In this document: positions 9,307 to 39,843 of the stretch, one piece after another
Numbering within the stretch: the first letter of the stretch is position 1
Layout: each line of letters begins with the position of its first letter
Assembly: GCA_964469295.1 (NCBI GenBank)
Contig: CAYXYJ010000006.1
Span: forward strand, 4,682 to 68,681
Length of the DNA stretch: 64,000 nucleotides
Direction of reading: 5' to 3'
Origin: an uncultured Candidatus Saccharibacteria bacterium
GTDB lineage: Bacteria > Patescibacteriota > Minisyncoccia > Phycocordibacterales > UBA918
The notes under the pieces: generated by a model
Databases searched by the model: none
Told to the model about the DNA's origin: nothing
Seen by the model: only the letters and a program-made list of their open reading frames with translations
Made by a program: the position numbers and the translations under genes

Positions 9307-9720
9307 ATGGCAACAATCAATCAATTAACCAAAAAGAAGCGTCGCGATCCAATCTCACGAACCAAAACTGGTGCGCTTGATATGGGCTTTAATTCCATCA
9401 TTAATAAGCCCAATTATTACAGTTCACCGTTTAAGCGTGGGGTATGTACCAAAGTAACCACCAAGACGCCACGTAAGCCGAACTCTGCGATTCGTAAAAT
9501 CGCTCGTGTCCGTCTTAGTAATGGTATGGAGGTTACTGCGTACATTCCCGGCATCAAGCACAATTTGCAGGAACACTCGGTGGTCCTCGTGCGTGGTGGT
9601 CGTGTGAAAGACATTGGCGTGAACTACACTATTGTTCGAGGTAAATACGACGCCACTGGCGTAGCCAATCGAACGATGGGGCGATCACGTTACGGCGCCA
9701 AGAAACCAAAGGCTAAGTAA
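9307..9720 (+). CDS. rpsL: 30S ribosomal protein S12
   Basis: MATINQL... [50 protein letters not shown]; start moved to ATG 9307 within the 9262 ORF; weak TTGCAA promoter-like element at 9267-9295. Confidence 0.92.
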
Positions 9721-10002
9721 GCCGGGATATACCCCATCTGCTTTGTTGCTCGGCGAAAATTTTTGTTCGATGTACAGCTAGTACACCTCACAAAAAATTT
9801 TCTTGAGCACCTCGCATTTGGGGCATCCCCGACTTCCTTAGAGTAAGGAGTCTGAGATTAACCAATCTCAAAAATTAATAGTCTATATTCGCTACAGATA
9901 GCTCGTGGTGTCACACTAAAATGTGAATGACCATTATGCGAAGAATGAAAGAAGGCCTGGCCATACTCTCATTCTTAATTACTCACATTAAGAACTTATA
10001 CA

Positions 10003-10473
10003 ATGCGACGACCAATTAAAAAACGCCCAGTGGTAAAGCCAGATGTACAGTTTGGTTCAACCGAAGTGGAGCGACTAATTAACTACATCATGCTTCGTGG
10101 TCAAAAGGAAACCGCACGCAAGATTGTTTATGCGGCATTTGCTGAAATTAAGGAACGGAAAGATGGTGGTGACCCACTCGAAATCTACCAGACTGCTCTT
10201 CGTAATGCTGGTCCGCTGATGGAAGTACGATCACGACGTGTCGGTGGGGCGAACTACCAAGTCCCGCGCGAAGTGCGTCCAGAACGACGACTCGCGCTCG
10301 CACTCCGATGGATTATTGGAGCGGCGCGTGGTGCCAAGGGTATTCCTATGCACAAAGCGCTGGCCAATGAACTTATTCTCGCAGCTAAAGAAGAAGGAAC
10401 AGCTGTCAAAAAGCGTGATGATGTTCACAAAATGGCTGAGGCTAACCGCGCTTTTGCTCACTTCGCTTGGTAA
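10003..10473 (+). CDS. rpsG: 30S ribosomal protein S7
   Basis: 156 aa, MRRPIKKRPVVKPDVQFGS...GGANYQVPREVRPERR...AHFAW. Confidence 0.92.
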   Translation: MRRPIKKRPVVKPDVQFGSTEVERLINYIMLRGQKETARKIVYAAFAEIKERKDGGDPLEIYQTALRNAGPLMEVRSRRVGGANYQVPREVRPERRLALALRWIIGAARGAKGIPMHKALANELILAAKEEGTAVKKRDDVHKMAEANRAFAHFAW

Positions 10474-10500
10474 ACCACATTCTCGGGAGATAACTTTGTC

Positions 10501-10571
10501 GAAAGCCCTGAAAATTCTGTCACCGTACAATCAGTACGGCTCCAGAATTTTCAGGGCTTTCTTCGCGTTCT
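10501..10571 (+). other. large stem-loop (19-bp perfect stem) directly after rpsG
   Basis: gaaagccctgaaaattctg ... cagaattttcagggctttc with an inner hairpin ccgtac/gtacgg. Confidence 0.6.
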
Positions 10572-10623
10572 CTCTTCGAGAATCGGATTTATCCCCCATT
10601 GACTCAAAAAATGCAAGGCTTTC

Positions 10624-10644
10624 GCCTTGTTTTGCTTGGAAAAT
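10624..10644 (+). terminator. intrinsic terminator
   Basis: caaggc tttc gccttg + ttttg. Confidence 0.55.
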
Positions 10645-10665
10645 CTCTGTTACGAAAAACCGCCC

Positions 10666-10710
10666 GACTGGATATATATTCCAGTCGGGCGGTTTTCTTG
10701 TTCATTTTAT
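10666..10710. terminator. bidirectional terminator (17-bp perfect stem)
   Basis: aaaaccgcccgactgga tatatat tccagtcgggcggtttt. Confidence 0.7.
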
Positions 10711-10800: not shown

Positions 10801-11328
10801 TTAAGCGGCCAGTAATTCCTCCCCCTGATCAGGCGTCCAGACCCGATATACGTGTAGGGGTAGAACCAAGGCTTGGCGGGCGATAGCATCGCCCGGGTGC
10901 ACGTGATTCACAAACAGCGTCAGTGGCAAATGGGCAGTCGTCATAGCTTGGTGAATGGCGACCGGATCGGCCCCGTCGCGCCGACCCACTCGACCGCGTC
11001 CGATTTCGACAATCGAGAATTGACGGTCGTTTTGACCGTCTTCGGCATCCCGATACCAGAGGTAATCGAGACCAAAGCGGACAAACTTGTCGCTGTTGTT
11101 CCAACCACCCTGGCCAAGCTTGTGGCAGATGAGCATATGTAGTCGCCGACTAGCGTCGAAGTTGGAACTGAGGATTCCGCCGAGTGTCAGAGGGCTGGTC
11201 AGTTTCAGTTCGGCCGTGAACGGAAGTCCGATGTTGGTGACATCACGCAGCGACGTATTCATGCCGATGATGATGTCTCGTTGGTTGTGTGGTCCGGTAA
11301 TATCACCGGTGTCGTGCCCGATAATCAT
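10801..11328 (-). CDS. hypothetical protein (175 aa), GC-elevated; weak resemblance to Zn-peptidase (H-x-T-G..D) folds only
   Basis: clean ORF with higher GC than neighbours; no confident family assignment. Confidence 0.45.
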   Translation of the reverse strand: MIIGHDTGDITGPHNQRDIIIGMNTSLRDVTNIGLPFTAELKLTSPLTLGGILSSNFDASRRLHMLICHKLGQGGWNNSDKFVRFGLDYLWYRDAEDGQNDRQFSIVEIGRGRVGRRDGADPVAIHQAMTTAHLPLTLFVNHVHPGDAIARQALVLPLHVYRVWTPDQGEELLAA

Positions 11329-11520
11329 AATGCTCTCCCTTTTTGCGGTCCGTCACTATACTATTTTGAATCCATAAAAAGTCAATGCGTGTAATAAAAT
11401 TTCTCTAACCGATTTTATATTGCTTAACAACGGCACTTGCGAACTATATTAGAGTTAGTTTTCCTCATTTCGGTTCGCTGCCTTACAAGGCGGTTTAGGT
11501 ATATGAGGTATACTGGTAGT

Positions 11521-11976
11521 ATGGAAAAAAGTCCGAAAGGGGAAAAGGGGGTGGTGGGGAGCGAGCGAAGCGAGCGCCCGTTGTCGCTCGTGGAAACTCA
11601 GCGACAAGAGGCGTTTGCTTTTGTAATGAGTGAACTTGATCGTCGGTTTCCAATCGAGTTAAAACGAACATTCATTTCTCATGAGAAAGAGTATGCCTTG
11701 ACGAGTGCTGAGGACTGCATGGTGGCGTTTGCCCAACAACACCGCGAAGCGGTGGCGTCATTATACGAAGATATCATTACTCAAAACAATTATCGGGCCG
11801 AACAAGCCACCGTCAAACTACTACAGCTCTTTGAATCATATGAACGAATGGTGGCGTTGTATGCCGAATTACGCAGTTATTATCCCTTGGCCGCAGACGC
11901 TGTCGAGACGAAACTTCCGCCACTTGGTCAAGTAGCGAAACATGCAGAAAAAGTGTGGCAAACGATTACGGATTAA
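11521..11976 (+). CDS. hypothetical protein (~151 aa)
   Basis: ORF 11437-11976; most plausible start MEKSPKGEKG at 11521. Confidence 0.45.
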   Translation: MEKSPKGEKGVVGSERSERPLSLVETQRQEAFAFVMSELDRRFPIELKRTFISHEKEYALTSAEDCMVAFAQQHREAVASLYEDIITQNNYRAEQATVKLLQLFESYERMVALYAELRSYYPLAADAVETKLPPLGQVAKHAEKVWQTITD

Positions 11977-11991
11977 TACGTAGCATCATCT

Positions 11992-13050
11992 ATGACCATT
12001 GATTTTCAAAAAGAAATCGAGATTCATCTCGCACAAATCAAAGCTCTACAGAAACCGTCTGGTGTCTTTACTGCGGCTGCTCATACTGTTGCTACTGGAT
12101 ACGATAAAGCGTGGTTGCGTGATAATTTTTTTACGTCCTTAGGATTTCTAGAAACCGGAGATAGCAACACCGTGACTAAAGTAGCGAAGGCGTTATTGTC
12201 AGTGTTTGTAAAACATAAAGACAAAATTAATTGGGCAATTGAAAACAAACCACATGAAACCTGGCAATATATTCATGCCCGGTTCCATCCGGAAACATTC
12301 GAAGAATATTGGGAAGAATGGGGAAATAGTCAAAATGATGCGGTGTCTGAGGTGCTATATCTCGTCTGTGATTTAGAAATTCGTGGCGTGTCCGTGGCCG
12401 AAACCGCTGACGAACGAGAAATGACGCAAAAAATTATTGATTATTTGGTTCGTCTTGAATATTGGCATGATGCCGATAATGGAATATGGGAAGAAAATAT
12501 GGAAGTCCATGCGTCATCAATCGGCGCTGGCGTAGCTGCCTTAAAATTGGCGGCTATGGTTCCGTGGTTGTCTGTTCCCCCCGAAGCCATTGCCTATGGT
12601 GAAGCCGCTTTACGACATCTATTGCCACGAGAATCACATACTAAATTTGCCGACCTGGCACTGTTGTCGCTTATTTACCCGTTTGCGGTGACGACACCCG
12701 CTGAAACCGAAACGATTTTACGAAATGTTGTGTACCACTTGACGCGCGATCGCGGGGTGATTCGGTATAAACTTGATCGATATTACAATGCGAATGAAGA
12801 TGGTTATAGTGAAGAAGCGGAATGGTGTTTTGGTTTGTCGTGGCTAGCGATTATTTATGCGTTGCGTGGCGAAAAAGAGCGAGCCTGGTACTATTTACGA
12901 CAAGCAAAAAAAACGGTTACGACCCATAATCAAGTGCCCGAACTCTATTTTTCTAACAGTCCAGTGCCAAACGATAATACACCATTAGGATGGTCAGAAA
13001 GTATGTACGTTGTAGCGCTTGAAAAGGTGCGTCAACTTGGCGCTGAATAA
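11992..13050 (+). CDS. glycoside hydrolase family 15 (glucoamylase-like) domain protein
   Basis: 352 aa; AWLRDN, GIWEE, EEAEWCFGLSW, GWSESMY motifs resemble the GH15 (alpha/alpha)6 catalytic domain. Confidence 0.55.
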   Translation: MTIDFQKEIEIHLAQIKALQKPSGVFTAAAHTVATGYDKAWLRDNFFTSLGFLETGDSNTVTKVAKALLSVFVKHKDKINWAIENKPHETWQYIHARFHPETFEEYWEEWGNSQNDAVSEVLYLVCDLEIRGVSVAETADEREMTQKIIDYLVRLEYWHDADNGIWEENMEVHASSIGAGVAALKLAAMVPWLSVPPEAIAYGEAALRHLLPRESHTKFADLALLSLIYPFAVTTPAETETILRNVVYHLTRDRGVIRYKLDRYYNANEDGYSEEAEWCFGLSWLAIIYALRGEKERAWYYLRQAKKTVTTHNQVPELYFSNSPVPNDNTPLGWSESMYVVALEKVRQLGAE

Positions 13051-13091
13051 TGACCTAAAGCCTTTCACCACCCGACAGAAACGACGATTTT

Positions 13092-13742
13092 TTGCTATAC
13101 TACAATTGTATGAAAACGATACATATAATTGTAGTATTGGTGATTATGGTTGGTGTTGGTTTGGCGTTTGGTTATTTTGCCAATGAAGTGAAAGCCCCCG
13201 CTGAACCCGTCGCCGAACAACCAATCGATGAAGGTAACACCACATTTTGTGCCATGGACGCGATGCAGTGTCCGGACGGCAGTTTTGTGGGACGAACTGG
13301 TCCGCACTGTGAATTTGTGTGTCCGGTTACAGACGAAACGATGCCGGCTGATGTTGTGGCAGCGATTGAGGCTTTGGCTGATCGGATTGTAGTAACCTCA
13401 CCATCGCCACTAGCTACTGTCGATGGACCATTAGTGATTACCGGCCAAGCTCGGGGGAATTGGTTTTTCGAAGCCTCTTTCCCGGTGTCATTAGTAAATT
13501 GGGACGGTGTTGTCATTGCTAATGGAATTGCCACCGCTCTTGGGGATTGGATGACGGAAGATTTTGTGCCGTTTACTTCGACCTTAAATTTTGTATCACC
13601 ATACAACGTTGGTGACCCAGCCTATATGGCTAACGGAACTCTTATTTTGGAGCGCGATAACCCATCCGGGTTGCCAGAACATGATGCCTCACTGGAAATT
13701 CCGGTGAGATTTTCACCAACCGCATCTACCACCATAGAATAG
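13092..13742 (+). CDS. membrane-anchored extracellular protein with Cys-rich segment and Gmad2/GerM-like Ig domain (tentative)
   Basis: N-terminal TM helix; CAMDAMQCPDGSF...HCEFVCP; ITGQARGNWFFEASFPVSLVNWDG resembles Gmad2 Ig-like domains. Confidence 0.45.
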   Translation: MLYYNCMKTIHIIVVLVIMVGVGLAFGYFANEVKAPAEPVAEQPIDEGNTTFCAMDAMQCPDGSFVGRTGPHCEFVCPVTDETMPADVVAAIEALADRIVVTSPSPLATVDGPLVITGQARGNWFFEASFPVSLVNWDGVVIANGIATALGDWMTEDFVPFTSTLNFVSPYNVGDPAYMANGTLILERDNPSGLPEHDASLEIPVRFSPTASTTIE

Positions 13743-13891
13743 GTACGCGTATACTAGTACTATACCGTTAGAATATAAATTATTGCATTGTATGGCCAAA
13801 GGAGAATTTAGACACAAAAAAGAAGCCAAAAAACCAAAGAAAGACAAAGTTGATAAAAACAAATCTTCATTACTGTAGCTTTGCGTTTATA

Positions 13892-13925
13892 CCAAAACCA
13901 GCAATCAATTGATTGCTGGTTTTGG
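13892..13925. terminator. palindromic hairpin / terminator
   Basis: ccaaaaccagcaatc aatt gattgctggttttgg (15-bp perfect stem). Confidence 0.55.
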
Positions 13926-13937
13926 TATACTGCTCGT

Positions 13938-14396
13938 ATGCGTCGAATAGTATTGGTGGTGGTAGCTCTGATCATAATTGTGTTGCTGTTGACTGTTGGT
14001 TTTTTCACTGCCAGTTACTTTTTTAGTCAAGGATTAGTCATGGAAGCGACACCAGTACCAACAAGAACAGTGCATACTGATGAATCAATCGTAACCGGGC
14101 AGGGTAGCATTAATACCTTGCCTTCTATTACTGCTGGTGATTACGAATGCGCACTGACATTTTCAGATACTCGCTATGACACGGGCACGGCCTTTATTGC
14201 TAGTAATGCTATCAGAATCGATGCGCTCACAATTGATAATCAAGTAACCAGTCTTGCGAGTACAACCAAATCGATAACATTTTTAGGAGCTTCGTCGTCG
14301 GCAGGAGAAGTGGATACATTACCATATTTTTTACAAGAAGTTGTCCTATATATCTGTCATCCTTGGCAAGTTGATTGGTCAGTTTTTGATTTGTAA
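13938..14396 (+). CDS. membrane-anchored hypothetical protein (~152 aa)
   Basis: start at MRRIVLVVVALIIIVLLL (TM anchor) downstream of the hairpin; remainder of the 13881 ORF. Confidence 0.45.
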   Translation: MRRIVLVVVALIIIVLLLTVGFFTASYFFSQGLVMEATPVPTRTVHTDESIVTGQGSINTLPSITAGDYECALTFSDTRYDTGTAFIASNAIRIDALTIDNQVTSLASTTKSITFLGASSSAGEVDTLPYFLQEVVLYICHPWQVDWSVFDL

Positions 14397-14452
14397 GTGT
14401 TTATAATATTTACCATTTTCAAATGTATAGAAATAGTGTATGGTAAATCCCT

Positions 14453-15931
14453 ATGTCAAGAACTGATGGATTGATTGTGTTTAGTGATGTTTCCTTTGAG
14501 CACGATGCTACTAGGCCAATTTTGCGAGGGGCGAATTTTGTAGTGCGTCGGGGTGCCAAGATGACTCTGATGGGCCAAAATGGCGCTGGAAAAAGTACCA
14601 TTTTTGGTTTGATTTCCGGACAGCTACATGTTGATGGTGGAGATATTAATATTCAACCTCGCACAACCATTGGCATTGCCCGGCAAATTATTCCTCGTGA
14701 CGAGTTGCCATTGACGGTCAGAGAATTTTTTGAACGTTGTTTTTCTGAAAAAGTGTATGACCTCGATCCGCGAATTGATGAAGTGCTCGATATCGTCAAC
14801 CTTACCCCGACGGAAAAGATGAAAGATGAATTCAAGGATAGAATTATCGGCAGTTTTTCTGGTGGCCAGCAAGCGCGGCTCCTCCTCGCATCGGCATTAA
14901 TCCAAAATCCCGATGTGTTATTGCTGGATGAACCGACTAACAATTTGGATGTCGCCGGGATTGCTCATTTGACCGAGTTTTTAAAAGAGTATCGCAAGAC
15001 CGTCCTTGTTATTTCTCATGATGCGGAGTTTCTTAATTCGTTTACTGATGGTGTGTTGTATCTTAACGTGCAAAATCGTCAAGTCGAACAATACAACGGC
15101 AATTATCACGCGGTGTTAAAAGACATTGCGGCTCGGGTAGAAAAAGAGCAACGCCAAAATGCACAACTAGCCAAACAAATTCAAGCGGATAAAGATAAGG
15201 TTAATTTCTTTGCCAGTAAAGGAGGAAAGATGCGATTGGTTGCCAAACGTATGCGTGAAGATATCGAAGAAGCCGAAGAGAATAAAGTGGATGTTCGAAA
15301 GGAAGATCGCACTATTCGACCATTCACAATTGAAACACAAGCGGAAGTACCGCTTGAAGTGGTGCGGTTATCTTCATATAAAGTGATTAAAAATCACCAA
15401 CCAAAAGTTGTGTCATGTGATATTGTGCTCAAACGCGGAACGCATTTACAAATTATTGGGCCAAATGGTATTGGCAAAACAACTCTACTAGAGTCACTGG
15501 CTTCCGGTCGAGCCGAAGGAGAGCAGGTTACACCAGGTGTCAAAATCGGTTACTACCGTCAGGATTTTTCTAATCTTGAATTTGATAAAACGGTATTTGA
15601 AACCCTGATGGATTCCATGTCAAAAAAAATTGAAGAGGATATGCGTTCGATTGCTGCCGGTTTTTTGTTATTTAGTGATGTGATGAAAACCAAAGTTGGC
15701 AATTTGTCTGAAGGACAAAAGGGGCTGGTTGCATTTGCCAAATTAACGATGGAACGACCAGGATTATTAATTCTGGATGAACCAACCAATCATATTAATT
15801 TTCGGCATATTCCGGTGATTGCGACGGCTCTTGATGGATTTAAAGGGGCGATGATATTGGTGTCTCACGTACCAGAATTTGTGGAACAAATTCGGATTGA
15901 CGAAATACTGGATTTGGGGAAAGAGCGGTAA
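14453..15931 (+). CDS. ABC-F family ATPase (two tandem ABC domains, no TM domain; translation-associated EttA/ribosome-protection type)
   Basis: 492 aa; two Walker A (GQNGAGKST, GPNGIGKTT), two signatures (FSGGQQARLLLA, LSEGQKGLVAFA), two Walker B (LLLDEPTN, LILDEPTN). Confidence 0.85.
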   Translation: MSRTDGLIVFSDVSFEHDATRPILRGANFVVRRGAKMTLMGQNGAGKSTIFGLISGQLHVDGGDINIQPRTTIGIARQIIPRDELPLTVREFFERCFSEKVYDLDPRIDEVLDIVNLTPTEKMKDEFKDRIIGSFSGGQQARLLLASALIQNPDVLLLDEPTNNLDVAGIAHLTEFLKEYRKTVLVISHDAEFLNSFTDGVLYLNVQNRQVEQYNGNYHAVLKDIAARVEKEQRQNAQLAKQIQADKDKVNFFASKGGKMRLVAKRMREDIEEAEENKVDVRKEDRTIRPFTIETQAEVPLEVVRLSSYKVIKNHQPKVVSCDIVLKRGTHLQIIGPNGIGKTTLLESLASGRAEGEQVTPGVKIGYYRQDFSNLEFDKTVFETLMDSMSKKIEEDMRSIAAGFLLFSDVMKTKVGNLSEGQKGLVAFAKLTMERPGLLILDEPTNHINFRHIPVIATALDGFKGAMILVSHVPEFVEQIRIDEILDLGKER

Positions 15932-15996
15932 GGCACACACACGAACGCGGGCGTCTACACACATTGTGTGTGGACGCCCGCGTTCGTGTGTGTGCC
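15932..15996. terminator. giant hairpin (~31-bp near-perfect stem, att loop) with (CA)n/(TG)n arms, after the ABC-F gene
   Basis: ggcacacacacgaacgcgggcgtctacacaca att tgtgtgtggacgcccgcgttcgtgtgtgtgcc; one U-G position. Confidence 0.75.
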
Positions 15997-16035
15997 ACAC
16001 TTTGTTATACTAGACACGTTAAGTGGTAAGTCGTT

Positions 16036-17046
16036 ATGAAAAAAATTATTTTTGGTATTATTGGCGTTATTGGTATTGGGATTATTGCTGGCGGTGTCTA
16101 TTGGTTTTTTATGTACGAAGCGCCAAAACCGGAACGACCAAAACGTGATCCAAATTTATGGACAGTGCCCGAAGTAAAATATTCCATGCAAGGAAAAACG
16201 TTTATGGTTCCCAATGAGCCAACCGTCACTGTACCACTTACGTTAGTGGCGCCGAGCACCAAACACGATTACCCAATGGGTCGTTTTACCACCGCCAGTG
16301 GCACAGAAGCGATGCTGTATGTTATGGATGATTTTGTCACTGATGTAATAAACGGAAAACGTGCCGTACCGTTAGTTATAAAATCGGCCGATGGAACTGA
16401 ATCAGTGTATGTTGCCTTGTTACAGGATTTAGGTGGTGATGTAACCCACCTGTCTTCGATATATTTGGATAATCAAATAAAGGTGACAGCTGTTGCCGTC
16501 GATGGCCATACCGTTTCAATACAATATTATGTGCATGACCGCAATCAATCTCTAACGGAAAACCCAACGGTACTTACCACTGCCGTTATTGATGTTGATG
16601 CGGGGACCTTGGTACAAGCCGGACGCAAACCGCGTTCTGAAGAATTCATCGTTACCAAAGAATTTAAGGGTGTATATTATTGGAAAGAAACAGAACTTGA
16701 TGGTGTCAAAACCACACCGTCAAAACCAGAGACATTTTCTTTGACGTTTGATGGTAATCGTATTTCACTTGCCACTGACTGTAATTCAGGATCAGCTGAA
16801 TTCACTCCGCCCACTGGTAGTTCCACTGCGCTTGCCTTTGGGCCAATTGTGAGTACTAAAATGTTTTGTGAGAGTAGCGAGGAAGGTCTGTATTTTGAGG
16901 CAATACGCAACGTGCGATCCTTTGTTGAGTCTGATGATGCGCTCACGTTCACTTTGGAAAACGGTGGTGAGATGGTGTTTGAAAAAAAGAAACAAATTAT
17001 TCAATACGAAAATGATACTGCATCCAGCGCAGTGACGAGCGAATAA
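16036..17046 (+). CDS. membrane-anchored META/HslJ-domain protein
   Basis: 336 aa; N-terminal TM; C-terminal FSLTFDGNRISLATDCNSGSAEF...KMFCESSEEGLYFEAIRNV...LTFTLENGGEMVFEK fits the META (DUF306) domain pattern. Confidence 0.65.
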   Translation: MKKIIFGIIGVIGIGIIAGGVYWFFMYEAPKPERPKRDPNLWTVPEVKYSMQGKTFMVPNEPTVTVPLTLVAPSTKHDYPMGRFTTASGTEAMLYVMDDFVTDVINGKRAVPLVIKSADGTESVYVALLQDLGGDVTHLSSIYLDNQIKVTAVAVDGHTVSIQYYVHDRNQSLTENPTVLTTAVIDVDAGTLVQAGRKPRSEEFIVTKEFKGVYYWKETELDGVKTTPSKPETFSLTFDGNRISLATDCNSGSAEFTPPTGSSTALAFGPIVSTKMFCESSEEGLYFEAIRNVRSFVESDDALTFTLENGGEMVFEKKKQIIQYENDTASSAVTSE

Positions 17047-17064
17047 TAATAGTAGTATCAATCT

Positions 17065-31162: not shown

Positions 31163-31486
31163 ATGAAAGCAACTCTAAAAAATTATCGCCAGTCACCACG
31201 TAAAGTACGATTGGTTGCTGATGTGATTCGCGGCAAAAAAGTCGCCGTTGCTCAAAACGCTCTTAACTTTGTGGAAAAGCGAGCGGCAGTGCAATTCAGT
31301 AAATTATTGGCGTCAGCGGTGGCGAATGCCAAACAAGCTGGTGCCAATCCAGACCAGCTTATTGTAAAGTTTGTGTCAGTAGACAAGGCGCCAACCTTGA
31401 AACGATTCATGCCACGGGCTCGTGGTTCGGCTTCACGCATTAACAAGCGTTCTAGCCATATTACTATTGAACTCGGTATTAAATAA
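31163..31486 (+). CDS. rplV: 50S ribosomal protein L22
   Basis: 107 aa, ...YRQSPRKVRLVADVIRGKKV... Confidence 0.9.
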   Translation: MKATLKNYRQSPRKVRLVADVIRGKKVAVAQNALNFVEKRAAVQFSKLLASAVANAKQAGANPDQLIVKFVSVDKAPTLKRFMPRARGSASRINKRSSHITIELGIK

Positions 31487-31487
31487 T

Positions 31488-32216: not shown

Positions 32217-32221
32217 TTGCT

Positions 32222-32659: not shown

Positions 32660-32670
32660 GTACTATTTGT

Positions 32671-32868
32671 ATGAAATACGAAGATATCACAAAAAAGACT
32701 GACTCGGAATTAATCGATACCGTTTTGGCGGCTCGTAAAGAACTTCAGACCGAACGGTTGAAAGATCGTTTCACCAAAAAAGCTTCAATTATTCGCGCCG
32801 CCAAATTGACGGTTGCTCAAGCACTCACTGAGATGAAGGCCAGAGCTCGTCGTGGTGACACCAAGTAA
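32671..32868 (+). CDS. rpmC: 50S ribosomal protein L29
   Basis: 65 aa, ...ELQTERLKDRF... Confidence 0.85.
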   Translation: MKYEDITKKTDSELIDTVLAARKELQTERLKDRFTKKASIIRAAKLTVAQALTEMKARARRGDTK

Positions 32869-32876
32869 TACTGGTT

Positions 32877-33125
32877 ATGACAACAGAAACAGTAAACAAG
32901 GGTCGAGTATTACGCGGAACAGTAGTGTCAACCAAAATGAAAGACACCATCACTGTTGCCGTCGAACGATACGTCATGCACCCAAAGTATAAGAAGTTCA
33001 TGCGTCGTACCAAGAAATTCTTGGTACACGATGCGGGAAATACCGCTAAAGAAGGCACGATTGTTGATATTCAGGAAACTCGTCCGTTATCAAAACGTAA
33101 GCGCTTTACGCTTATTACCAAGTAA
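32877..33125 (+). CDS. rpsQ: 30S ribosomal protein S17
   Basis: 82 aa, ...RVLRGTVVSTKMKDTITVAVERYVMHPKYKKF... Confidence 0.9.
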   Translation: MTTETVNKGRVLRGTVVSTKMKDTITVAVERYVMHPKYKKFMRRTKKFLVHDAGNTAKEGTIVDIQETRPLSKRKRFTLITK

Positions 33126-33137
33126 TTAATTCACGGT

Positions 33138-33509
33138 ATGATTCAACCACAGACAATTGTCCGCATTACGGACAACTCAGGTGCCAAGGTCGGACGTGTT
33201 TTCAAGATTCTTGGTGGTTCAAAAAAGCGTTACGCTGAGCTTGGAGAGATGGTAGTACTGGCTGTACAAACCGCAGAACCTCGCAAAGCGGTAAAGAAGA
33301 AGGATGTCGTATACGGCGTTGTTGTTCGTCAGGTAAAGCCCTATCGTCGTAAAGACGGTTCATATGTGAGCTTTGACGACAATGCCGTGGTACTCGTTGA
33401 CAAAGTAAAAAAAGAGCCGAAAGCAAACCGCGTCTTTGGTCCAATCCCACGCGAACTTGCCGAAGCTGGTTATCAGAAAATCGTCTCATTGGCCCCCGAG
33501 GTCGTGTAG
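33138..33509 (+). CDS. rplN: 50S ribosomal protein L14
   Basis: 123 aa, MIQPQTIVRITDNSGAK... Confidence 0.93.
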   Translation: MIQPQTIVRITDNSGAKVGRVFKILGGSKKRYAELGEMVVLAVQTAEPRKAVKKKDVVYGVVVRQVKPYRRKDGSYVSFDDNAVVLVDKVKKEPKANRVFGPIPRELAEAGYQKIVSLAPEVV

Positions 33510-33527
33510 TCGCCTAAGATACTTCAT

Positions 33528-33839
33528 ATGAAAATCAAAAAAGGAGACACGGTAAAAGTGATTGCCGGCAAAGACAAGGGAAAGACGGGAACAGTGTTAC
33601 TAACACTAGCTGCCACGAATCAGGTTGTTATTGAGGGAGTTAATGTAGCAACGAAACACCAAAAAAATCGTCGGCTTCGTTCCCAAGGACAGATTATTGA
33701 GAAAAGCATGCCGATTGATGCGTCTAATGTAGCTCTGATGGAAGGAAATAAGACCGTTCGTGTGGGCTACATCTTTGACGGTGAAGGGGACAAGCGTAAA
33801 AAAGTACGCGTCGCTCGCCCGAGTGGTAAAAAAATCTAA
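33528..33839 (+). CDS. rplX: 50S ribosomal protein L24
   Basis: 103 aa, MKIKKGDTVKVIAGKDKGKTG... (KOW). Confidence 0.9.
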   Translation: MKIKKGDTVKVIAGKDKGKTGTVLLTLAATNQVVIEGVNVATKHQKNRRLRSQGQIIEKSMPIDASNVALMEGNKTVRVGYIFDGEGDKRKKVRVARPSGKKI

Positions 33840-34384
33840 TGCGTATGGAAACAACAAAACAAAAAATCACTACAGCATTTACTGCCATGAAAGGCACATT
33901 TGGCTATAGTAATGTGATGCAAACACCACGTCTACAAAAAGTCGTTGTGTCAGTTGGTACCGGTCGCGTATCAGATAAGCACCGAGAGGCGTTGATCGTT
34001 GACCGATTATCGGTGATTACTGGACAAAAACCATCAGCCCGTCCGGCCAAGCAATCAATCGCTTCGTTTAAGTTGCGAGAAGGTGAAATCATTGGATATC
34101 AGGTGACATTACGAGGTAGTCGCATGATGCACTTTGTTGATAAACTCATTCATTTGGCATTGCCACAAACTCGCGATTTTCGTGGGCTAAAAGTCACTGC
34201 CATTGATGATATGGGAAATATCACGATTGGCATTAAAGACAACACTATTTTCCCTGAATGTGCAGAAGAAGAGTTAAAAGATGTTTTTGGTCTCGCTATT
34301 ACGATTGTGACAACAGCAAAAAGTAAAGCTGAAGCCGAAGCGTTTTTGCGCCATATTGGCTTGCCATTGCAAAAAGCTGAATAG
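33839..34384 (+). CDS. rplE: 50S ribosomal protein L5
   Basis: 181 aa, ...RLQKVVVSVGTG... Confidence 0.9.
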   Translation: MRMETTKQKITTAFTAMKGTFGYSNVMQTPRLQKVVVSVGTGRVSDKHREALIVDRLSVITGQKPSARPAKQSIASFKLREGEIIGYQVTLRGSRMMHFVDKLIHLALPQTRDFRGLKVTAIDDMGNITIGIKDNTIFPECAEEELKDVFGLAITIVTTAKSKAEAEAFLRHIGLPLQKAE

Positions 34385-34432
34385 CTTTTTAGAAAGCAAA
34401 GAGTTTTGCTTTTAGCTAAGATAGAAATATAC

Positions 34433-34472
34433 AAAACAGCACCGCGGGCGTACGCCCGCGGTGCTGTTTTGC
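34433..34472 (+). terminator. intrinsic terminator after rplE (18-bp perfect stem)
   Basis: aaaacagcaccgcgggcg ta cgcccgcggtgctgtttt. Confidence 0.75.
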
Positions 34473-34636
34473 CGTCTGATAAAAGATAAATAAACTGAAT
34501 AAAGTGCGACTCACTAAGAAGTATTAAAAAGTCAAAAAAGAGCGTCCCATTATTAAAATTAAAGCAGTATAGAAATCGGCCCCTCAAGGTAGAGGGGCCG
34601 AGTCGTTGAGGGACATTTCCCTCGCTGGGGCGGCGC

Positions 34637-35638
34637 TTAGGCGCCAAAGAACGTTCGGGCGAAGATTACGATGATCTGTCCGAAGCCGCGGACGACTTCG
34701 GACGAGACCCCAGTGCCAGACAGTTCGCCGTCGACCGAGACGTTGACATAGACACCGTCGACGCTGCGACCCGAGTTCGTGAGGCGCAGGGTGCCGACGA
34801 TGCCGTCCACCACCGCAAACGGATCTGCCGCCGCAAACGGGTCCGCCCCGCCGACGCCGGGGACGACCAGATTCAGCTGGTATTCCTGCTGGTGGTCAGC
34901 CGCGTCAACGTCGACAAGCGGCATGTTTCCTTCGAGGCGATATGAGATGTCCCCGCACCGAACATCGAACTCCATTTGCCAGGCGCCGTTGGCGTAGGCG
35001 TAGATGGCGTCGCCGGTCCAGCTGCAGGATTCGGTGTTGCCAAGTCCGACGTGCGGGATGGTGAAATTGTCGAACCGGACAGCGTCGAGCGCCGTGTCGT
35101 ATTCGACCGCCTCCCCGCCCGCCGCCGCTTCTTGCAGATTCTCGATCAGCCGCTGCCCGAGGGCAAGGGCCGATGCCGAGGGATTCTCGGGTGCCATGAC
35201 GAGGGAACCACCGAAATGGCTGTTCTCGGCACTGGCGGCCCCGGCGCGCAGGTAGTTTGCCAGGATGGTGGTGGCGTCCGTGTAGCCATCTTCGCCCGCC
35301 AACACGGTGAAGCCGCCGTTGTATTGCAGACGCGGGAGCGTCTGGGCGAGGTTGTTTGGGTTCTTGATGAGCCCGTTGCCGGTTACTGCACAGGCCTCAT
35401 CGACCCGCGACAGCCCGAGCCAGGCCGAGCTGCCGGCCGAGCACTCGATCGTCAGGGCCGTCCTGCCCGAGGCGTCGTCGATGGTGCCGGTAAACCTGTC
35501 ATGCTGGTCGCTGTCGAAAAGGGACGGTTGGTTCACCGTCAGGGTGATATCGGCCGTGACTGGGACGGTCTGGGCCATGATGGGGCCAGCCAGGATAGCC
35601 AGAATCACGCCGGCAACGGCCAAGAAGAGTTTGGACAT
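34637..35638 (-). CDS. secreted hypothetical protein (333 aa), strongly GC-anomalous (~60%+ GC), antisense to the spc operon
   Basis: signal peptide MSKLFLAVAGVILAILAGPIMAQT; Gly/Ala/Asp-rich; local GC far above flanking ribosomal genes; hairpin cggcccctc/gaggggccg just past its stop. Confidence 0.65.
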   Translation of the reverse strand: MSKLFLAVAGVILAILAGPIMAQTVPVTADITLTVNQPSLFDSDQHDRFTGTIDDASGRTALTIECSAGSSAWLGLSRVDEACAVTGNGLIKNPNNLAQTLPRLQYNGGFTVLAGEDGYTDATTILANYLRAGAASAENSHFGGSLVMAPENPSASALALGQRLIENLQEAAAGGEAVEYDTALDAVRFDNFTIPHVGLGNTESCSWTGDAIYAYANGAWQMEFDVRCGDISYRLEGNMPLVDVDAADHQQEYQLNLVVPGVGGADPFAAADPFAVVDGIVGTLRLTNSGRSVDGVYVNVSVDGELSGTGVSSEVVRGFGQIIVIFARTFFGA

Positions 35639-35783
35639 TATTTCCCTTTCCTTTTGTTTGAGAGGCACTTCGGTCAAAGAACCAAAGACCAAGAGCCGGC
35701 GGCAACAGTATCAACAATATATACGTTTGTCAATGGTACGGTACGGCGTCCTCACTGCGGGTTCGGCTTCGCTCCTAAAAACC

Positions 35784-35811
35784 TTGCAAAATAGTACTTT
35801 TCTGGTACTAT
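35784..35811 (+). promoter_or_regulatory. putative promoter for rpsN...secY (TTGCAA-N16-TACTAT) followed by hairpin-rich leader
   Basis: ttgcaa 35784-35789, tactat 35806-35811; leader hairpins ggcgaaac ttc gtttcgcc (~35876-35896) and tcaccg attc gcggtga. Confidence 0.45.
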
Positions 35812-35975
35812 TGTCGTCGAACTGTGCGGTTTTAATTCTTTTTAAGAAAAACCGGATGGTGTGTTGTTTGGGTAGCGGCGAAACTTCGTTTCGCCGCGCT
35901 ATGACCTAAGGAGCATATTTATTAGGGGGCACGTCACCGATTCGCGGTGATACGGCTTCATAACATACAAATCAA

Positions 35976-36161
35976 GTGGCACGAACATCAGTAAAGGTGC
36001 GCGCAGCGCGTACCCCGAAGTATGCTTCACGCGTCGTAAGACGATGTAAGCTCTGTGGGCGAAAGCACGGCTATTTGCGTGATTTTGACATTTGTCGAAT
36101 CTGCTTCCGTGAACTCGCACATGAAGGACAGATACCAGGTATAAAGAAATCATCATGGTAG
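35976..36161 (+). CDS. rpsN: 30S ribosomal protein S14, Zn-binding type Z (61 aa), GTG start
   Basis: [61 protein letters not shown] with CxxC...CxxC. Confidence 0.9.
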
Positions 36162-36550
36162 GCGACGTAATTGGCGATTTCATTATCCGTCTGAAAAATG
36201 CTGGAACAGTTGGTCATGCTAATGTTTCGGTTCCATATTCAAAGCTCCGCCATGCGGTAGCCAAGAAATTGGTAGAGGCTGGATACATTGAATCAGTAGA
36301 GCCAAAAGGCAAAACTACAGCAGAAAAGACGCTTGAGGTCACACTCAAGTACGAAGATGGTGCACATCGTATTAACGGAGTAAAACGCATCAGTAAACCG
36401 GGGCGCCGTTTGTACGCAAAGGTCGAATCTATTCATCAAGTAAAGTTTGGTAAGGGTCATCTCATCCTTTCAACACCGCTTGGCATTCTCACAAATGTGG
36501 AAGCCAAAGCGCAAAATGTTGGCGGTGAGCAACTCTTTATCATTTGGTAA
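36155..36550 (+). CDS. rpsH: 30S ribosomal protein S8
   Basis: 131 aa; overlaps rpsN stop by 7 nt. Confidence 0.9.
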
Positions 36551-36552
36551 TT

Positions 36553-37083
36553 ATGAGTCGTTTAGGAAAACAACCAGTAACAATCCCGGCCGGTGTCGAG
36601 ATATCAGTTACTGACGGAATTTTGACCGTAAAAGGAGCAAAAGGAACGCTCACTCGGACTGTACGAGCTGATGTCACCGTTACCGTTGATAACGGTGTGG
36701 TGACGCTTACCCCAAATAAAACAGAAATGGCGCCCGCATTATGGGGAACATACGCTGCTCATGTCCGCAATATGATTACTGGTGTGAGTACCGGTTTTAC
36801 GAAGATTCTCGATATTGAAGGAGTCGGATACCGCGCTGAAGTAAAGGGAACCGATCTCTCACTCAACATGGGATATTCTCATCCGGTGGTGCTGGCGATT
36901 CCGGCGGGTGTCACGGCTGTAGTAGAGAAGTCAGCGATCACTCTCTCGTCACATGATATTGAATTACTCGGGCAATTTGCAGCTAATGTGCGCAAAGTGC
37001 GTGAACCAGAACCATATAAAGGAAAAGGAATTCGGTATCGTGGAGAGTTTATTATTCGTAAACAAGGTAAGAAGGCTGTCTAG
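36553..37083 (+). CDS. rplF: 50S ribosomal protein L6
   Basis: MSRLGKQPVTIPAGVEISV...; start at ATG 36553. Confidence 0.9.
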   Translation: MSRLGKQPVTIPAGVEISVTDGILTVKGAKGTLTRTVRADVTVTVDNGVVTLTPNKTEMAPALWGTYAAHVRNMITGVSTGFTKILDIEGVGYRAEVKGTDLSLNMGYSHPVVLAIPAGVTAVVEKSAITLSSHDIELLGQFAANVRKVREPEPYKGKGIRYRGEFIIRKQGKKAV

Positions 37084-37095
37084 CCCATCTCTCGT

Positions 37096-37443
37096 ATGGA
37101 AAAAAATCAATACAAGCAGGCAAAGCGCGCTGGCCGACATACCCGGATTCGCGCCAAAATTACTGGCACTGCAGACCGTCCTCGTCTCGCTGTCTTTAAG
37201 AGTAACCGTTTCGTATACGTCCAACTTATTGATGATACGAAAGGGGTAACATTGGCCGCGGCTGATTCACGAAGCCACAAAGGGACCATGACTGAAGGCG
37301 CCGTCGCTATTGGAACGGCAATTGCCAAACAAGCGACTGATAAAGGGATTAAGACAGTTGTTTTTGACCGCGGCGGATTCAAGTATCAAGGACTGATTGC
37401 GGCGTTGGCTGACAGTGCTCGCGCTGGCGGATTGGCGTTCTAA
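37096..37443 (+). CDS. rplR: 50S ribosomal protein L18
   Basis: 115 aa, ...[20 protein letters not shown]... Confidence 0.9.
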
Positions 37444-37475
37444 AACGCATCTTTATTCACATAGACACAATACAT

Positions 37476-38096
37476 ATGTCACAGCAGGAAGCTACAACTG
37501 ATGTTGAAACAACATCACCAGCAGTGGAAGTAACACCCACTCCCGATGCACCGGCTACTGACGCAACGACTGAACGTCGTCCGCGTCGTGGTGGAGATCG
37601 TGGGGAACGTGGATCACGTCGTCCGCGTCGTGGCGGTAGTGCTCGACCGGAACGGACACGTCCGGAGTTTGATCAAAAAATTATCAGTATTCGCCGGGTT
37701 ACTCGTGTGATGGCCGGCGGACGTCGCTTCAGTTTTTCTGTTGCTATCGTTTGCGGTGATAAACGCGGTCGAGTTGGTGTTGGTATCGGCAAAGCCGGTG
37801 ATACCCAACTGGCGATTGAAAAAGCCGTCCGTGATGCGAAAAAGCACATGATTACCATCCCAATGAACAAGGATAGTCACATTCCGCATGACGTTCATAC
37901 TAAATATGCGTCAACCGAGGTGATGATTATGCCAGCACCGGGCCGAGGATTGGTGGCTGGTTCGTCGGTACGAACCGTACTTGAATTGGGAGGAGTCAAA
38001 GATGTTACTGCGAAAATTTTCTCTCGCAGTAAAAACAAACTTAACAATGCTCGCGCTGCTGTCGAAGCGCTCAAGCTTTTAAAGAAGTCAAAATAA
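37476..38096 (+). CDS. rpsE: 30S ribosomal protein S5 with ~60-aa low-complexity (T/P/A/R-rich) N-terminal extension
   Basis: core ...IISIRRVTRVMAGGRRFSFSVAIVCGDKRGRVGVGIGKA...; rplO follows directly, no rpmD (L30) gene. Confidence 0.9.
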   Translation: MSQQEATTDVETTSPAVEVTPTPDAPATDATTERRPRRGGDRGERGSRRPRRGGSARPERTRPEFDQKIISIRRVTRVMAGGRRFSFSVAIVCGDKRGRVGVGIGKAGDTQLAIEKAVRDAKKHMITIPMNKDSHIPHDVHTKYASTEVMIMPAPGRGLVAGSSVRTVLELGGVKDVTAKIFSRSKNKLNNARAAVEALKLLKKSK

Positions 38097-38097
38097 T

Positions 38098-38547
38098 ATG
38101 CAGCTTCATGAACTTACTCCGGCAACAATCCGGAAGACAGCCAAGCGCATTGGACGTGGTGGTAAGCGCGGCAAGACGTCTGGTCGTGGTGGAAAAGGAC
38201 AAACCGCTCGTGCTGGTAACAGTACTCGTCCAGAAATGCGTGATTTTATCAAGAAATTGCCAAAGCTTCGTGGTCATGGTGTGAACCGTGCGGCGACAGT
38301 AAACGCCGAACGAGTGCGAGCTATCGCGGTTAATGTCTCAACTTTAGACGCCGCGTTTGCAGCAGGTGATACCGTCACTCCAAAAACTTTGGTGGCCATG
38401 AAAGTAACGACATTGGTGGCAAAACGAGCGCCAAAAGTAAAAATTCTTGCTACTGGCGAGATCACCAAAGCGCTCACCATTGAGGGGTGCGACATATCGG
38501 CAACGGCCAAGACAAAAATTGAAAAAGCTGGCGGAAAGGTGCTTTAA
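38098..38547 (+). CDS. rplO: 50S ribosomal protein L15
   Basis: 149 aa, ...GRGGKRGKTSGRGGKGQTARAG... Confidence 0.9.
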   Translation: MQLHELTPATIRKTAKRIGRGGKRGKTSGRGGKGQTARAGNSTRPEMRDFIKKLPKLRGHGVNRAATVNAERVRAIAVNVSTLDAAFAAGDTVTPKTLVAMKVTTLVAKRAPKVKILATGEITKALTIEGCDISATAKTKIEKAGGKVL

Positions 38548-38565
38548 TCGTTACAATAGTCTCAT

Positions 38566-39843
38566 ATGCAAACCTTTCTTCGCAAACTGCACATTATCTT
38601 TACCGACGAGACTATTCGTAACCGTGTACTCTTTGTCTTTGGAGCTATTGTCATCTTTCGCTTGCTCGCAGCGATACCAATTCCTGGTGTTGACCAAGCA
38701 GTATTGCAGCAGTTTTTTGCGAATAATCAATTTCTCGGTCTTCTCAACATCTTTTCTGGTGGCGGGTTATCTAATTTGTCGATTGTTATGCTTGGAGTTG
38801 GGCCGTTTATTACGGCCTCGATTATCATGCAGCTCATGACCGTGATGTCTCCCCAAATGAAGTCTCTTTACACAGAAGAGGGTGAGGCTGGGCGCGCTAA
38901 ATTTACTCAAATTAGTCGCCTGTTGTCGTTGCCACTCGCGATTCTACAAGGGTTTGGCTTCCTCATGTTGCTCGAAAGTCAAGGAGTAGTCGTTCATTTG
39001 ACTACCTTTGATTTCGCGCTCAATGTGATTTTGGTGGTGGCTGGGGCAACGCTTCTCATGTGGGTAGGTGAATTGGTGACCGAATATGGTATTGGTAACG
39101 GCGTATCAATGATTATCTTTGCCGGTATTCTTTCGGGATTGCCAGCGACGATCAGTCAATTGATTTTCAGTTTTGACGCTGCCCAATTACCACTATATAT
39201 TGGTTTCCTATTCCTTACTCTTGGGGTGATGTATGCCGTAGTAGTGATGACTGAAGCCGAGCGAGTGGTGCCAATCACTCACGCTAAACAAAGTCGTGGA
39301 AATCTGATGCTCACCACAGCTGGTAATAATTCATATTTGCCACTGCGCCTTAATCAAGCTGGAGTTATTCCCATCATCTTTGCGCTATCAATTCTCTTAT
39401 TCCCACAAATGGTATTGAATATCTTGTCAGGATTTGGAATTGGTTGGGTAGTGACCGCAAATGATCTGGTGACACGGTTTATGAATAATCCGATATGGTA
39501 CGGTGGAACGTATTTTGTGTTGGTATTCTTCTTCACTTTCTTCTATACGGCAGTGACGTTTGATCCGGATGCTATTGCGAAAAACCTTCAACGAAATGGA
39601 GCCTTTATTCCAGGTATTCGTCCCGGTGATCACACCGCCGAATATCTTGGTAATCTCATTACCCGATTGACTCTTGTCGGCGCTGGATTCTTGGCAGTGA
39701 TTGCGGTGTTACCGATTGGTTTACAACAGGCGACTGGTATTGCAGCGCTTGCTATTGGTGGTACGGCAGTACTCATTATTGTGAACGTGGTACTTGACCT
39801 CATTCGACGACTCGACACACAAACATCGCTTCGTGAGTACTAA
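38566..39843 (+). CDS. secY: preprotein translocase subunit SecY
   Basis: 425 aa, 10-TM pattern, ...GVGPFITASIIMQLM... Confidence 0.92.
   Translation: MQTFLRKLHIIFTDETIRNRVLFVFGAIVIFRLLAAIPIPGVDQAVLQQFFANNQFLGLLNIFSGGGLSNLSIVMLGVGPFITASIIMQLMTVMSPQMKSLYTEEGEAGRAKFTQISRLLSLPLAILQGFGFLMLLESQGVVVHLTTFDFALNVILVVAGATLLMWVGELVTEYGIGNGVSMIIFAGILSGLPATISQLIFSFDAAQLPLYIGFLFLTLGVMYAVVVMTEAERVVPITHAKQSRGNLMLTTAGNNSYLPLRLNQAGVIPIIFALSILLFPQMVLNILSGFGIGWVVTANDLVTRFMNNPIWYGGTYFVLVFFFTFFYTAVTFDPDAIAKNLQRNGAFIPGIRPGDHTAEYLGNLITRLTLVGAGFLAVIAVLPIGLQQATGIAALAIGGTAVLIIVNVVLDLIRRLDTQTSLREY

Follow-up and report, generated by a model that had tools for sequence, protein, structure and literature searches.

The S10-spc block of ribosomal protein genes is a textbook case of operon-level autogenous control, and autogenous ribosomal protein leaders are well known, as is the subdivision of the supercluster into operons. 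The block also serves as a contiguous, co-inherited marker, for example as the 16 syntenic ribosomal proteins used in phylogenomics of the candidate phyla radiation (CPR). The S10 leader of E. coli contains a hairpin at which L4 promotes termination, and L4 blocks translation as well (PMC3616713). The distribution of the E. coli leaders is narrow, and ribosomal protein leaders are invented anew by individual lineages (PMC3616713). Eckert and Weinberg (2020; PMC7247131) proposed an L4 leader candidate in Archaeoglobi, located 5′ of rplC-rplD-rplW-rplB, and an L2 leader candidate in Alphaproteobacteria, located 5′ of rplB-rpsS. Here we describe the str-S10-spc cluster, rpsL to secY, in a 64-kb stretch of contig CAYXYJ010000006.1 (hereafter the window), which sequence comparison assigns to a Patescibacteria (CPR) genome of the Paceibacteria/Parcubacteria type. 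The cluster is interrupted at five junctions. We propose that it probably has an old, regulated layout of separately promoted and terminated units and is not the product of recent insertion damage, because the same junctions are cut in relatives and conserved folded leaders stand at several of the unit starts.

The gene order from rpsL to secY is canonical, and the five interruptions measure 9507, 1916, 508, 2107 and 1591 nt from 5′ to 3′, as an earlier reading of the same DNA (the original prediction) had described and as Pfam matches and the coordinates of the open reading frames (ORFs) confirm (Table 1). All ORFs were translated, and the ribosomal proteins and SecY were assigned by Pfam. 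L29 was the exception, being assigned from its translation and a tblastn match in relatives; elongation factors EF-G and EF-Tu were assigned from their sequences and by tblastn in relatives. No L30 gene lies between rpsE and rplO in the window, an absence described as a CPR signature by Tsurumaki et al. (PMC9297842). What sets the window apart is the partition into tuf-rpsJ, rplC-rplB, rpsS-rplE and rpsN-secY, conserved across a CPR clade, together with conserved gaps whose cargo changes and four or more leader structures outside Rfam. A search of the literature outside subscription journals found neither split ribosomal protein clusters nor ribosomal protein leaders in CPR bacteria, and the terms 'Parcubacteria' and 'candidate phyla' have 0 occurrences each in the survey of leader candidates (PMC7247131).

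We compared the locus with 200 related loci (referred to by L numbers), of which 80 are species-representative loci found with an L4 query and 120 are metagenome loci found with a pattern derived from the rplC leader. The 80 L4-related loci stem from metagenome-assembled genomes (MAGs) of Paceibacteria, Kaiserbacteria, Nomurabacteria, Parcubacteria and similar groups, with a best L4 identity of 80% to CALMKR010000285. No database entry was found whose sequence is identical to the L4 of the window. Window proteins were mapped onto the related loci by tblastn, and a junction was called open when its gap exceeded 300 nt. At L4 identities of at least 65%, 50-64% and below 50%, respectively, the rpsJ/rplC junction is open in 40/40 (a count taken up again below), 18/39 and 6/24 loci, and rplB/rpsS in 21/21, 37/40 and 6/18. 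The corresponding values are 13/15, 20/24 and 9/10 for fusA/tuf, 5/6, 17/29 and 2/14 for rplE/rpsN, and 1/1, 11/19 and 2/8 for rpsG/fusA. The other 17 junctions are each open in 0-2 loci per identity band; tuf/rpsJ never exceeds 300 nt in relatives. Open gaps in relatives reach up to 8 kb. In distant CPR bacteria such as Magasanikbacteria and Uhrbacteria the S10-spc block is contiguous.

Some relatives carry the units in permuted order. In L099 and L130 the leader and rplC to rplB come first, then tuf-rpsJ, then rpsS; in L181 fusA is followed by the rplC unit and then by tuf-rpsJ. Each of the permuted units in these three loci retains its own leader, and permutation of whole units is workable only if the units are self-sufficient. 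Together, the junctions open across relatives and the permuted units argue that the breakpoints are ancestral to a Paceibacteria clade. This runs counter to the original prediction, in which accessory DNA had fragmented the cluster of this genome: most Paceibacteria relatives have gaps at these five junctions and hardly ever at the other 17. The breaks are thus not lineage-specific, a result close to the ancestral arrangement that the prediction itself had named as grounds for giving it up. Its division of the cluster into about six units finds support at the sequence level, since each unit has a strong hairpin at its 3′ end and a promoter-like restart, both kept in relatives.

The hairpins differ clearly between unit ends and unit interiors. 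A strong hairpin had been predicted at the opening of every break, and stems of -17 to -36 kcal/mol, for which termination is predicted, are indeed found there. Downstream of module-internal genes in the window, hairpins are no better than about -11 kcal/mol. In relatives, a hairpin with a free energy of -15 kcal/mol or lower follows the stop codon of rplB in 77%, fusA in 67%, rpsJ in 52%, rplE in 52% and rpsG in 35% of cases, vs 0-11% of stops for all other cluster genes. Conservation of the hairpins is therefore confined to unit ends, as in the window. Length, on the other hand, does not set them apart. Hairpins of the same kind, with 14-31 paired positions and -20 to -65 kcal/mol, are found 3′ of about 20 genes throughout the 64 kb, among them recJ, the ABC-F gene, map, ndk, an RNase J-like gene, infC and the transfer-messenger RNA (tmRNA) gene. 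The claim that very long terminators insulate the breaks in particular therefore fell; predicted terminators throughout the window share this long-hairpin style, which is no insulation particular to the cluster. Scans with a terminator consensus gave 43 sites vs 20.7 expected, and 23 vs 13.7 expected.

Promoter-like sites of a shared form mark the restarts, with a -35 element of TTGC(A/T)(A/T) or TTGAC(T/A), a spacer of 16-17 nt and a -10 element of TAnnnT. Judged by hexamers, spacing, position and conservation, these sites fit a sigma-70-type promoter. The pattern TTGCAA-N16-TAYWRT has four matches in the window vs 0.12 expected (33-fold), and 0/100 shuffles reach four. Three matches lie at 23859, 25959 and 35784 on the forward strand, as had been predicted, and the fourth, at 47062 on the reverse strand, faces infC. 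A weaker site had also been named at 9267 and is present as such, with a longer spacer and TATTCT; it would leave rpsL a 5′ untranslated region of only about 5 nt. No promoter had been seen before rpsS. A promoter-like site with a different -35 hexamer can now be placed there (Table 1), and it is kept in relatives. A promoter stands at a fixed distance in 111/112 distinct upstream regions of rplC in relatives, where it reads TTGC[AT][AT], spacer 16, TATACT; in 27/29 of tuf, where it reads TTGCAA...TGGTACYAT and lies 168-188 nt 5′ of the ATG with one exception; and in 19/30 of rpsS.

Between promoter and start codon, the tuf, rplC, rpsS and rpsN units each carry a conserved, structured 5′ leader of about 160-180 nt. 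The leaders were found by aligning the regions 5′ of rplC, rpsS, rpsN, tuf and fusA from relatives. In the window their minimum free energy (MFE) z-scores, calculated against mononucleotide shuffles, range from -3.5 to -6.3 vs -1.5 to +0.5 for coding controls. The rplC leader is the best documented. Its seed alignment (A1) comprises 13 sequences and yields an RNAalifold structure with 12 compensatory pairs, and the pattern derived from it matches at least 120 copies in metagenomes. Wherever a contig includes rplC, a copy lies directly 5′ of this gene. With the covariance model R1 we aligned 96 copies, 88 of them distinct. Among the 88 distinct sequences, 94% of cells are paired vs 26-54% in slid controls, and 18/28 pairs are compensatory with 292 doubly changed cells, a level matched by 0/500 shuffles. 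The first hairpin, P1, has a variable tip and conserved flanks. The second reads ACAAAYCGCGC...GCGAGC-UUGU-GCUCGC...GCGCGR and is followed by UUUGUYRU after the GC-rich stem in 84/88 copies. From its sequence, this long hairpin has the shape of an intrinsic terminator.

The tuf and rpsS leaders are likewise tied to their genes. A long-range stem closes the tuf leader, pairing 5′ CCGC-CACAG with 3′ CUGUGUGCGG, and its model R2 has one match per locus, only 5′ of tuf, including L010, which lies outside the seed (5e-9). The rpsS model R3 likewise has one match per locus, only 5′ of rpsS, with L004 and L010 as matches outside the seed; 15/19 pairs of this leader are compensatory among 18 sequences. 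Two rpsS-leader motifs, GUUCCAACCUCA (30648-30660) and GGCCGUUACC (30727-30736), resemble what we take to be the 23S domain IV sequences GUUCCGACCUGCA (H71) and GGCCGUAAC (H69). Ribosomal protein leaders often imitate the rRNA site that their protein binds, and this resemblance is a possible hint of such mimicry. Upstream of fusA, a short GC hairpin and U run lie 10-45 nt after a conserved -10 element (GTATAGT) in at least 15/18 relatives, with changes in the stem. At gathering score, the only matches of the window to Rfam (4227 families) are the tmRNA and one tRNA, and at E <= 5 the region 9000-40200 has only spurious hairpin matches, with no leader in any family. As an observation on the tuf leader, its invariant motif GCUCUUUCACAC (23924-23947) is identical in 19/24 nt to a stretch of the tuf coding sequence, UCUCUUUCACAC (24255-24278), a resemblance that could be due to chance or to a shared binding determinant.

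A further structured element of about 95 nt occurs at varying sites. In seven copies it has 22 pairs, nine of them compensatory, and besides the window it is present in L001 (3032-3125), L102 (1422-1520), L089 (6328-6425), L127, L135 and L088. It follows secY in the window, occupies the tuf-rpsJ spacer in six relatives and lies between rplF and rplR in L088. No Rfam family matches it. We rejected the possibility that the element is rpmJ or another small ORF, since it has no conserved start, contains stops in all frames and shows compensatory changes. One possibility is a regulatory or protein-binding RNA that relocates.

The rplC leader is reminiscent of the E. coli S10 leader (PMC3616713): both are leaders of about 165-170 nt located 5′ of the operon that encodes L4, and both have an upstream hairpin and then, near the first start codon, a GC-rich hairpin of terminator type that ends in a U-rich tail. 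However, the leader in the window precedes rplC and not rpsJ, which sits with tuf, and its unit comprises 4 genes vs 11 in E. coli. It has no Rfam match at E <= 5 and so no detectable homology. The candidates of Archaeoglobi and Alphaproteobacteria are likewise structured RNAs from comparative genomics that lie directly 5′ of genes of this cluster, with a ribosomal protein presumed as the ligand. They belong to other lineages and have other structures and, if included in Rfam 15, give no match to the window. The rpsN leader resembles the E. coli spc S8 site in general form, with two stems and an internal loop just 5′ of rpsN-rpsH. The S8 site and the S7 site of the str operon are both autogenous control elements of the same supercluster. 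In E. coli the former overlaps the start of rplE and the latter occupies the rpsL-rpsG spacer, whereas the boundary in the window falls one gene downstream, between rplE and rpsN.

The contents of the gaps change between genomes and their positions persist. Three of the inserts had been predicted to encode proteins with signal peptides, which the translations bear out (i2a, i4a and i5; Table 1). No Pfam or NCBIfam family was assigned to i2a, i4a, i5, the 175-aa ORF or the small ORFs; i2b has only two sub-threshold Pfam matches, and only 5 relatives of i4a are present in the protein database. Part of the cargo recurs in place: GH15, ABC-F and glutamate dehydrogenase (GDH) genes are also found 5′ of fusA in relatives L198, L093, L112, L004, L142, L146 and L155, homologs of i2a follow fusA in 8 relatives and those of i2b in 3, and the antisense DUF2103 gene occupies rplB/rpsS in 17. 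The i4a family is found in three different junctions. Overall, the 447 gap ORFs fall into 349 clusters with a few recurrent families and 316 singletons.

Nor is the cargo foreign in general, as a codon-usage comparison of the inserts proposed with the original prediction makes clear. GC content at third codon positions (GC3) is native in 13/15 cargo genes of the window, with two outliers (z = 8.3 and 4.4). The second of these is the 175-aa ORF, whose homologs (43-62% identity, besides an exact copy) are in some cases found in marine contigs of 45% GC beside sortase and gyrB; it is possibly a recent foreign acquisition. Like genomic islands, the gaps place variable accessory genes, many of them secreted or membrane proteins and at least one of them foreign, between core genes. 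Unlike islands, they have no integrase or transposase, no att sites or direct repeats and no tRNA target, their composition is mostly native, and their positions persist throughout a deep clade. Among the cargo ORFs, Pfam and NCBIfam revealed no integrase, transposase or recombinase; no repeat family of the att or target-site-duplication type flanks the inserts within 9000-41000; and no tRNA lies in the cluster region or at the break borders. With neither recombinases, flanking repeats nor a tRNA target, and with mostly native composition, insertion as a mobile element or genomic island was rejected. A repeat origin of the intergenic hairpins, as in miniature inverted-repeat transposable elements, was also rejected, as blastn of the gap spacers against the window and the 200 loci gave self matches only, besides the leaders and the 95-nt element. 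Between DUF2103 and the rpsS promoter lies a stretch (30470-30612) that carries a promoter-like site and a predicted terminator; it was dropped as a candidate small RNA (z = -0.35, no homologs).

The other outlier, i5, is of evident foreign origin. The predicted antisense, signal-peptide-bearing insert of about 63% GC proved correct: as listed, the ORF (34637-35692) has 62.6% GC and a GC3 of 0.78, in a window of about 45% GC overall. Read from the ATG at 35638, i5 has 64% GC and a GC3 of 0.80 vs a median of 0.41 (the z of 8.3 given above). Its homologs share 44-73% amino acid identity, and those with names belong to Rhodobacteraceae, Paracoccaceae and Pararhodobacter. Two homologs that we examined share the context DsbA-DciA-MutY-desaturase-X-CcrM-RNase HII at 67-70% GC. 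The DNA similarity (72%) and the high GC are restricted to the ORF, and no i5 homolog occurs in any gap of the 200 related loci. Sequence and composition identify i5 as a single-gene horizontal capture from a Rhodobacteraceae-like alphaproteobacterium. Its AlphaFold2 model is confident (pLDDT 87) and β-rich; with it, Foldseek found no matching structure in the PDB (best E 3e-3, TM about 0.1-0.2).

We propose that each unit most likely acts as an independent operon that would restart from its own promoter and end at a strong hairpin. The leaders most likely serve autogenous feedback, in which a ribosomal protein would act on the unit that encodes it. Attenuation is the likely mode of the rplC leader, with L4 as candidate ligand by analogy with the E. 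coli S10 leader, and for the rpsN-rpsH unit S8 would be the candidate. Because the junctions are proposed to be transcriptionally insulated, they could tolerate foreign or accessory genes, including antisense ones, and would form long-lived slots with contents that turn over. Their residents would then be stable (ABC-F and GDH before fusA; antisense DUF2103 before rpsS), wandering (the i4a family) or recently captured (34637-35638).

A different history would have recent, lineage-specific insertions of accessory or mobile DNA, equipped with insulating terminators, break a once-contiguous cluster. The high variability of the cargo between relatives with its 316 singleton clusters, the two compositional outliers, one of them clearly Rhodobacteraceae-like, and the presence of i4a in different gaps across genomes would all suit such a history. 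It leaves unexplained why most relatives, to an L4 identity as low as about 50%, have gaps at the same five junctions, and why conserved promoters and structured leaders stand at the restarts; moreover, part of the cargo is conserved in place, 13/15 cargo genes are native, and integrase, transposase, target-site duplication and border tRNA are all missing. We consider recent insertion quite unlikely as an account of the breaks; it fits only the foreign gene at 34637-35638. An artefact of assembly or binning, such as a chimeric contig, might be suspected behind the breaks, or at least behind the gene of 63% GC, given that the source is evidently a MAG contig, identical copies of three cargo proteins being recorded from one NCBI contig, and that the GC jump at 34601-35600 is abrupt. 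We regard this as very improbable. More than 100 independent assemblies have breakpoints at the same places, which excludes an artefact for the breaks, and the foreign gene is a single ORF inside a long contig, with native flanks on both sides and an upstream region of native composition that it shares with the rpsN promoter. Its DNA identity to the nearest alphaproteobacterial copies is only 72%, and it therefore does not derive from contaminating reads of a co-assembled Rhodobacteraceae.

The cluster could also still be read as one long transcript, with the hairpins acting as stability or processing elements or as weak terminators and the leaders serving intercistronic processing or translational control. 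In several hairpins no clean U run follows the stem, and B. subtilis co-transcribes most of its S10-spc-alpha genes (PMC3616713). Such a transcript would, however, have to run through antisense genes in the gaps (DUF2103, i5, GFA, the 175-aa ORF) and across gaps that reach 8 kb, and it offers no reason for the correctly spaced promoter-like sites, whose distance 5′ of each leader is fixed and conserved, or for permuted units that keep their own promoter and leader; we think it unlikely. Several points do weigh against a layout of separately promoted and terminated units. Its promoters, terminators and separate transcription are predicted from sequence, and the binding of ribosomal proteins to the leaders is likewise proposed, with candidate ligands only. 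Many of the hairpins carry the U tract inside the stem, with an A-rich 5′ arm and a U-rich 3′ arm of the bidirectional type, and not as a free tail. The metagenome loci were chosen by the rplC-leader pattern, so that the 40/40 at rpsJ/rplC is partly biased; among GTDB loci, chosen by L4 only, this junction is open in 12/12 close relatives with the upstream region on the contig. The search pattern makes helix 1 and a portion of helix 2 of the rplC leader invariant, with helices 3-6 free of it, and the covariance-model alignment is fitted to the model and so leans to its structure. The rpsN leader is based on 9 sequences only (7/10 pairs compensatory), and a long structured RNA before fusA had to be rejected (z = -0.4). 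Finally, the gap ORFs were called mechanically, and some singletons are spurious.

The units provide candidate regulatory RNAs for a group of organisms whose gene regulation is almost entirely uncharted, and they support the view that ribosomal protein leaders are reinvented lineage by lineage (PMC3616713). A large uncultivated clade splits the S10-spc block consistently at the same five junctions, and gaps or foreign genes inside the marker block of a CPR MAG thus need not mean misassembly. The origin of i5 is a possible clue to a host, neighbour or partner of the presumed episymbiont. More speculatively, and with considerable reservation, one could imagine that the Paceibacteria clade has replaced the classical control circuitry with its own: at least four undescribed leader RNAs (tuf-rpsJ, rplC-rplB, rpsS-rplE, rpsN-secY), a fusA attenuator and the relocating element of about 95 nt. 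The insulated gaps that arose with this modular layout would then be conserved 'landing pads' beside highly expressed genes for secreted or surface proteins that are swapped, including the Rhodobacteraceae-type capture from a possible host or neighbour.

Table 1. Features of the str-S10-spc region in window coordinates; promoters, terminators and leaders are predictions.
Feature	Coordinates	Strand	Description
rpsL promoter-like site	9267-9295	+	TTGCAA-N17-TATTCT; read directly; weaker than the others
Module 1	9307-10473	+	rpsL 9307-9720, spacer 9721-10002, rpsG 10003-10473; Pfam S12, S7
Hairpins after rpsG	10501-10561, 10613-10630, 10656-10696	+	28-nt arms in the first; MFE z of the region = -13
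Break 1 cargo	10801-19528	both	10 genes; Pfam, NCBIfam
Break 1, part	10801-11328 (175-aa ORF)	- (175-aa ORF)	175-aa ORF, 56% GC; 157-aa ORF; GH15-like; Gmad2 domain; 152-aa membrane ORF
Break 1, part	14453-15931		ABC-F ATPase, ribosome-associated type; then hairpin with 32-nt arms, 15932-15996
Break 1, part	18203-19528 (GDH)	- (GFA)	META domain; NrtR-like regulator; GFA; GDH
fusA promoter	19834-19862	+	TTGCCG-N17-TATAGT
fusA 5′ element	19871-19900	+	short GC hairpin and U run, attenuator-like
Module 2	19981-22202	+	fusA 19981-22152 and terminator hairpin
Hairpin after fusA	22167-22202	+	-22 kcal/mol
Break 2 cargo	22275-23848	+	i2a, i2b
i2a	22275-23444	+	secreted 389-aa protein, signal peptide readable
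i2b	within 22275-23848	+	134-aa membrane-anchored protein
tuf promoter	23859-23886	+	TTGCAA-N16-TACTAT
tuf leader	~23887-24068	+	32 pairs, 15 compensatory, 21 sequences; MFE z = -6.3
Module 3	24069-25647	+	tuf 24069-25262, rpsJ 25303-25647; 40-nt spacer
Hairpins after rpsJ	25681-25724, 25866-25905	+	-17 kcal/mol (first); 20-bp perfect palindrome (second)
rplC promoter	25959-25986	+	TTGCAA-N16-TATAGT
rplC leader, structured core	25989-26131	+	P1 hairpin and long GC-rich terminator-like hairpin, then UUUGUUGU, ~40 nt before ATG
Module 4	26156-28784	+	rplC, rplD (L4, 26788-27468), rplW, rplB (26156-28708 in all) and hairpin; Pfam
Hairpin after rplB	28748-28784	+	-21 kcal/mol
Break 4 cargo	29222-30411	both	i4a, antisense DUF2103
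i4a	29222-30031	+	secreted 269-aa protein, signal peptide readable
DUF2103	30079-30411	-	antisense
rpsS promoter-like site	30613-30641	+	TTGACT-N17-TACTAT; hairpin 30587-30605 just 5′
rpsS leader, core hairpin	30715-30794	+	conserved loop GGCCGUUACC; MFE z = -3.5
Module 5	30816-34471	+	rpsS to rplE 30816-34384, then hairpin; Pfam
Hairpin after rplE	34432-34471	+	-36 kcal/mol
Break 5 cargo	34576-35638	-	secreted 333-aa protein i5 34637-35638 and its own GC-rich hairpin 34576-34601
rpsN promoter	35784-35811	+	TTGCAA-N16-TACTAT
rpsN leader	within 35784-35975	+	two-stem element with internal loop; hairpin GUCACCGAUUCGCGGUGAU ~35933-35951; MFE z = -4.6
Module 6	35976-39843	+	rpsN, rpsH, rplF, rplR, rpsE, rplO, secY; Pfam
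~95-nt structured element	39852-39943	+	after secY; long irregular hairpin, apex CGUAU-loop-AUACG
Palindrome after secY	39965-40004	+	terminator-type

Beyond the five breaks there are further discontinuities, among them the 282-nt spacer between rpsL and rpsG and, separating secY from adk, a cmk-like gene in antisense orientation. The spacer is structured (MFE z = -4.7), with a long imperfect hairpin at about 9722-9830, and occupies the same position as the S7 regulatory site of the E. coli str operon. In relatives the rpsL-rpsG spacer has a median of 15-55 nt vs 282 nt in the window, and no homolog of it was found among the 200 related loci. At the other end, 3′ of secY (40008-41874), the antisense cytidylate-kinase-like gene is followed by two tandem adenylate kinase paralogs (40480-41277 and 41281-41874) and then by map. 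The segment infA-rpmJ-rpsM-rpsK-rpsD-rpoA-rplQ does not follow map and is absent from the window, and rpoBC was not found 5′ of rpsL.

Outside the cluster, the tmRNA lies at 57385-57781 on the reverse strand and carries the tag AKNSVPSPYANAFGFAPAVA. The reverse strand also holds a tRNA-Ile with the anticodon UAU at 62847-62921, an unusual means of decoding AUA in bacteria.

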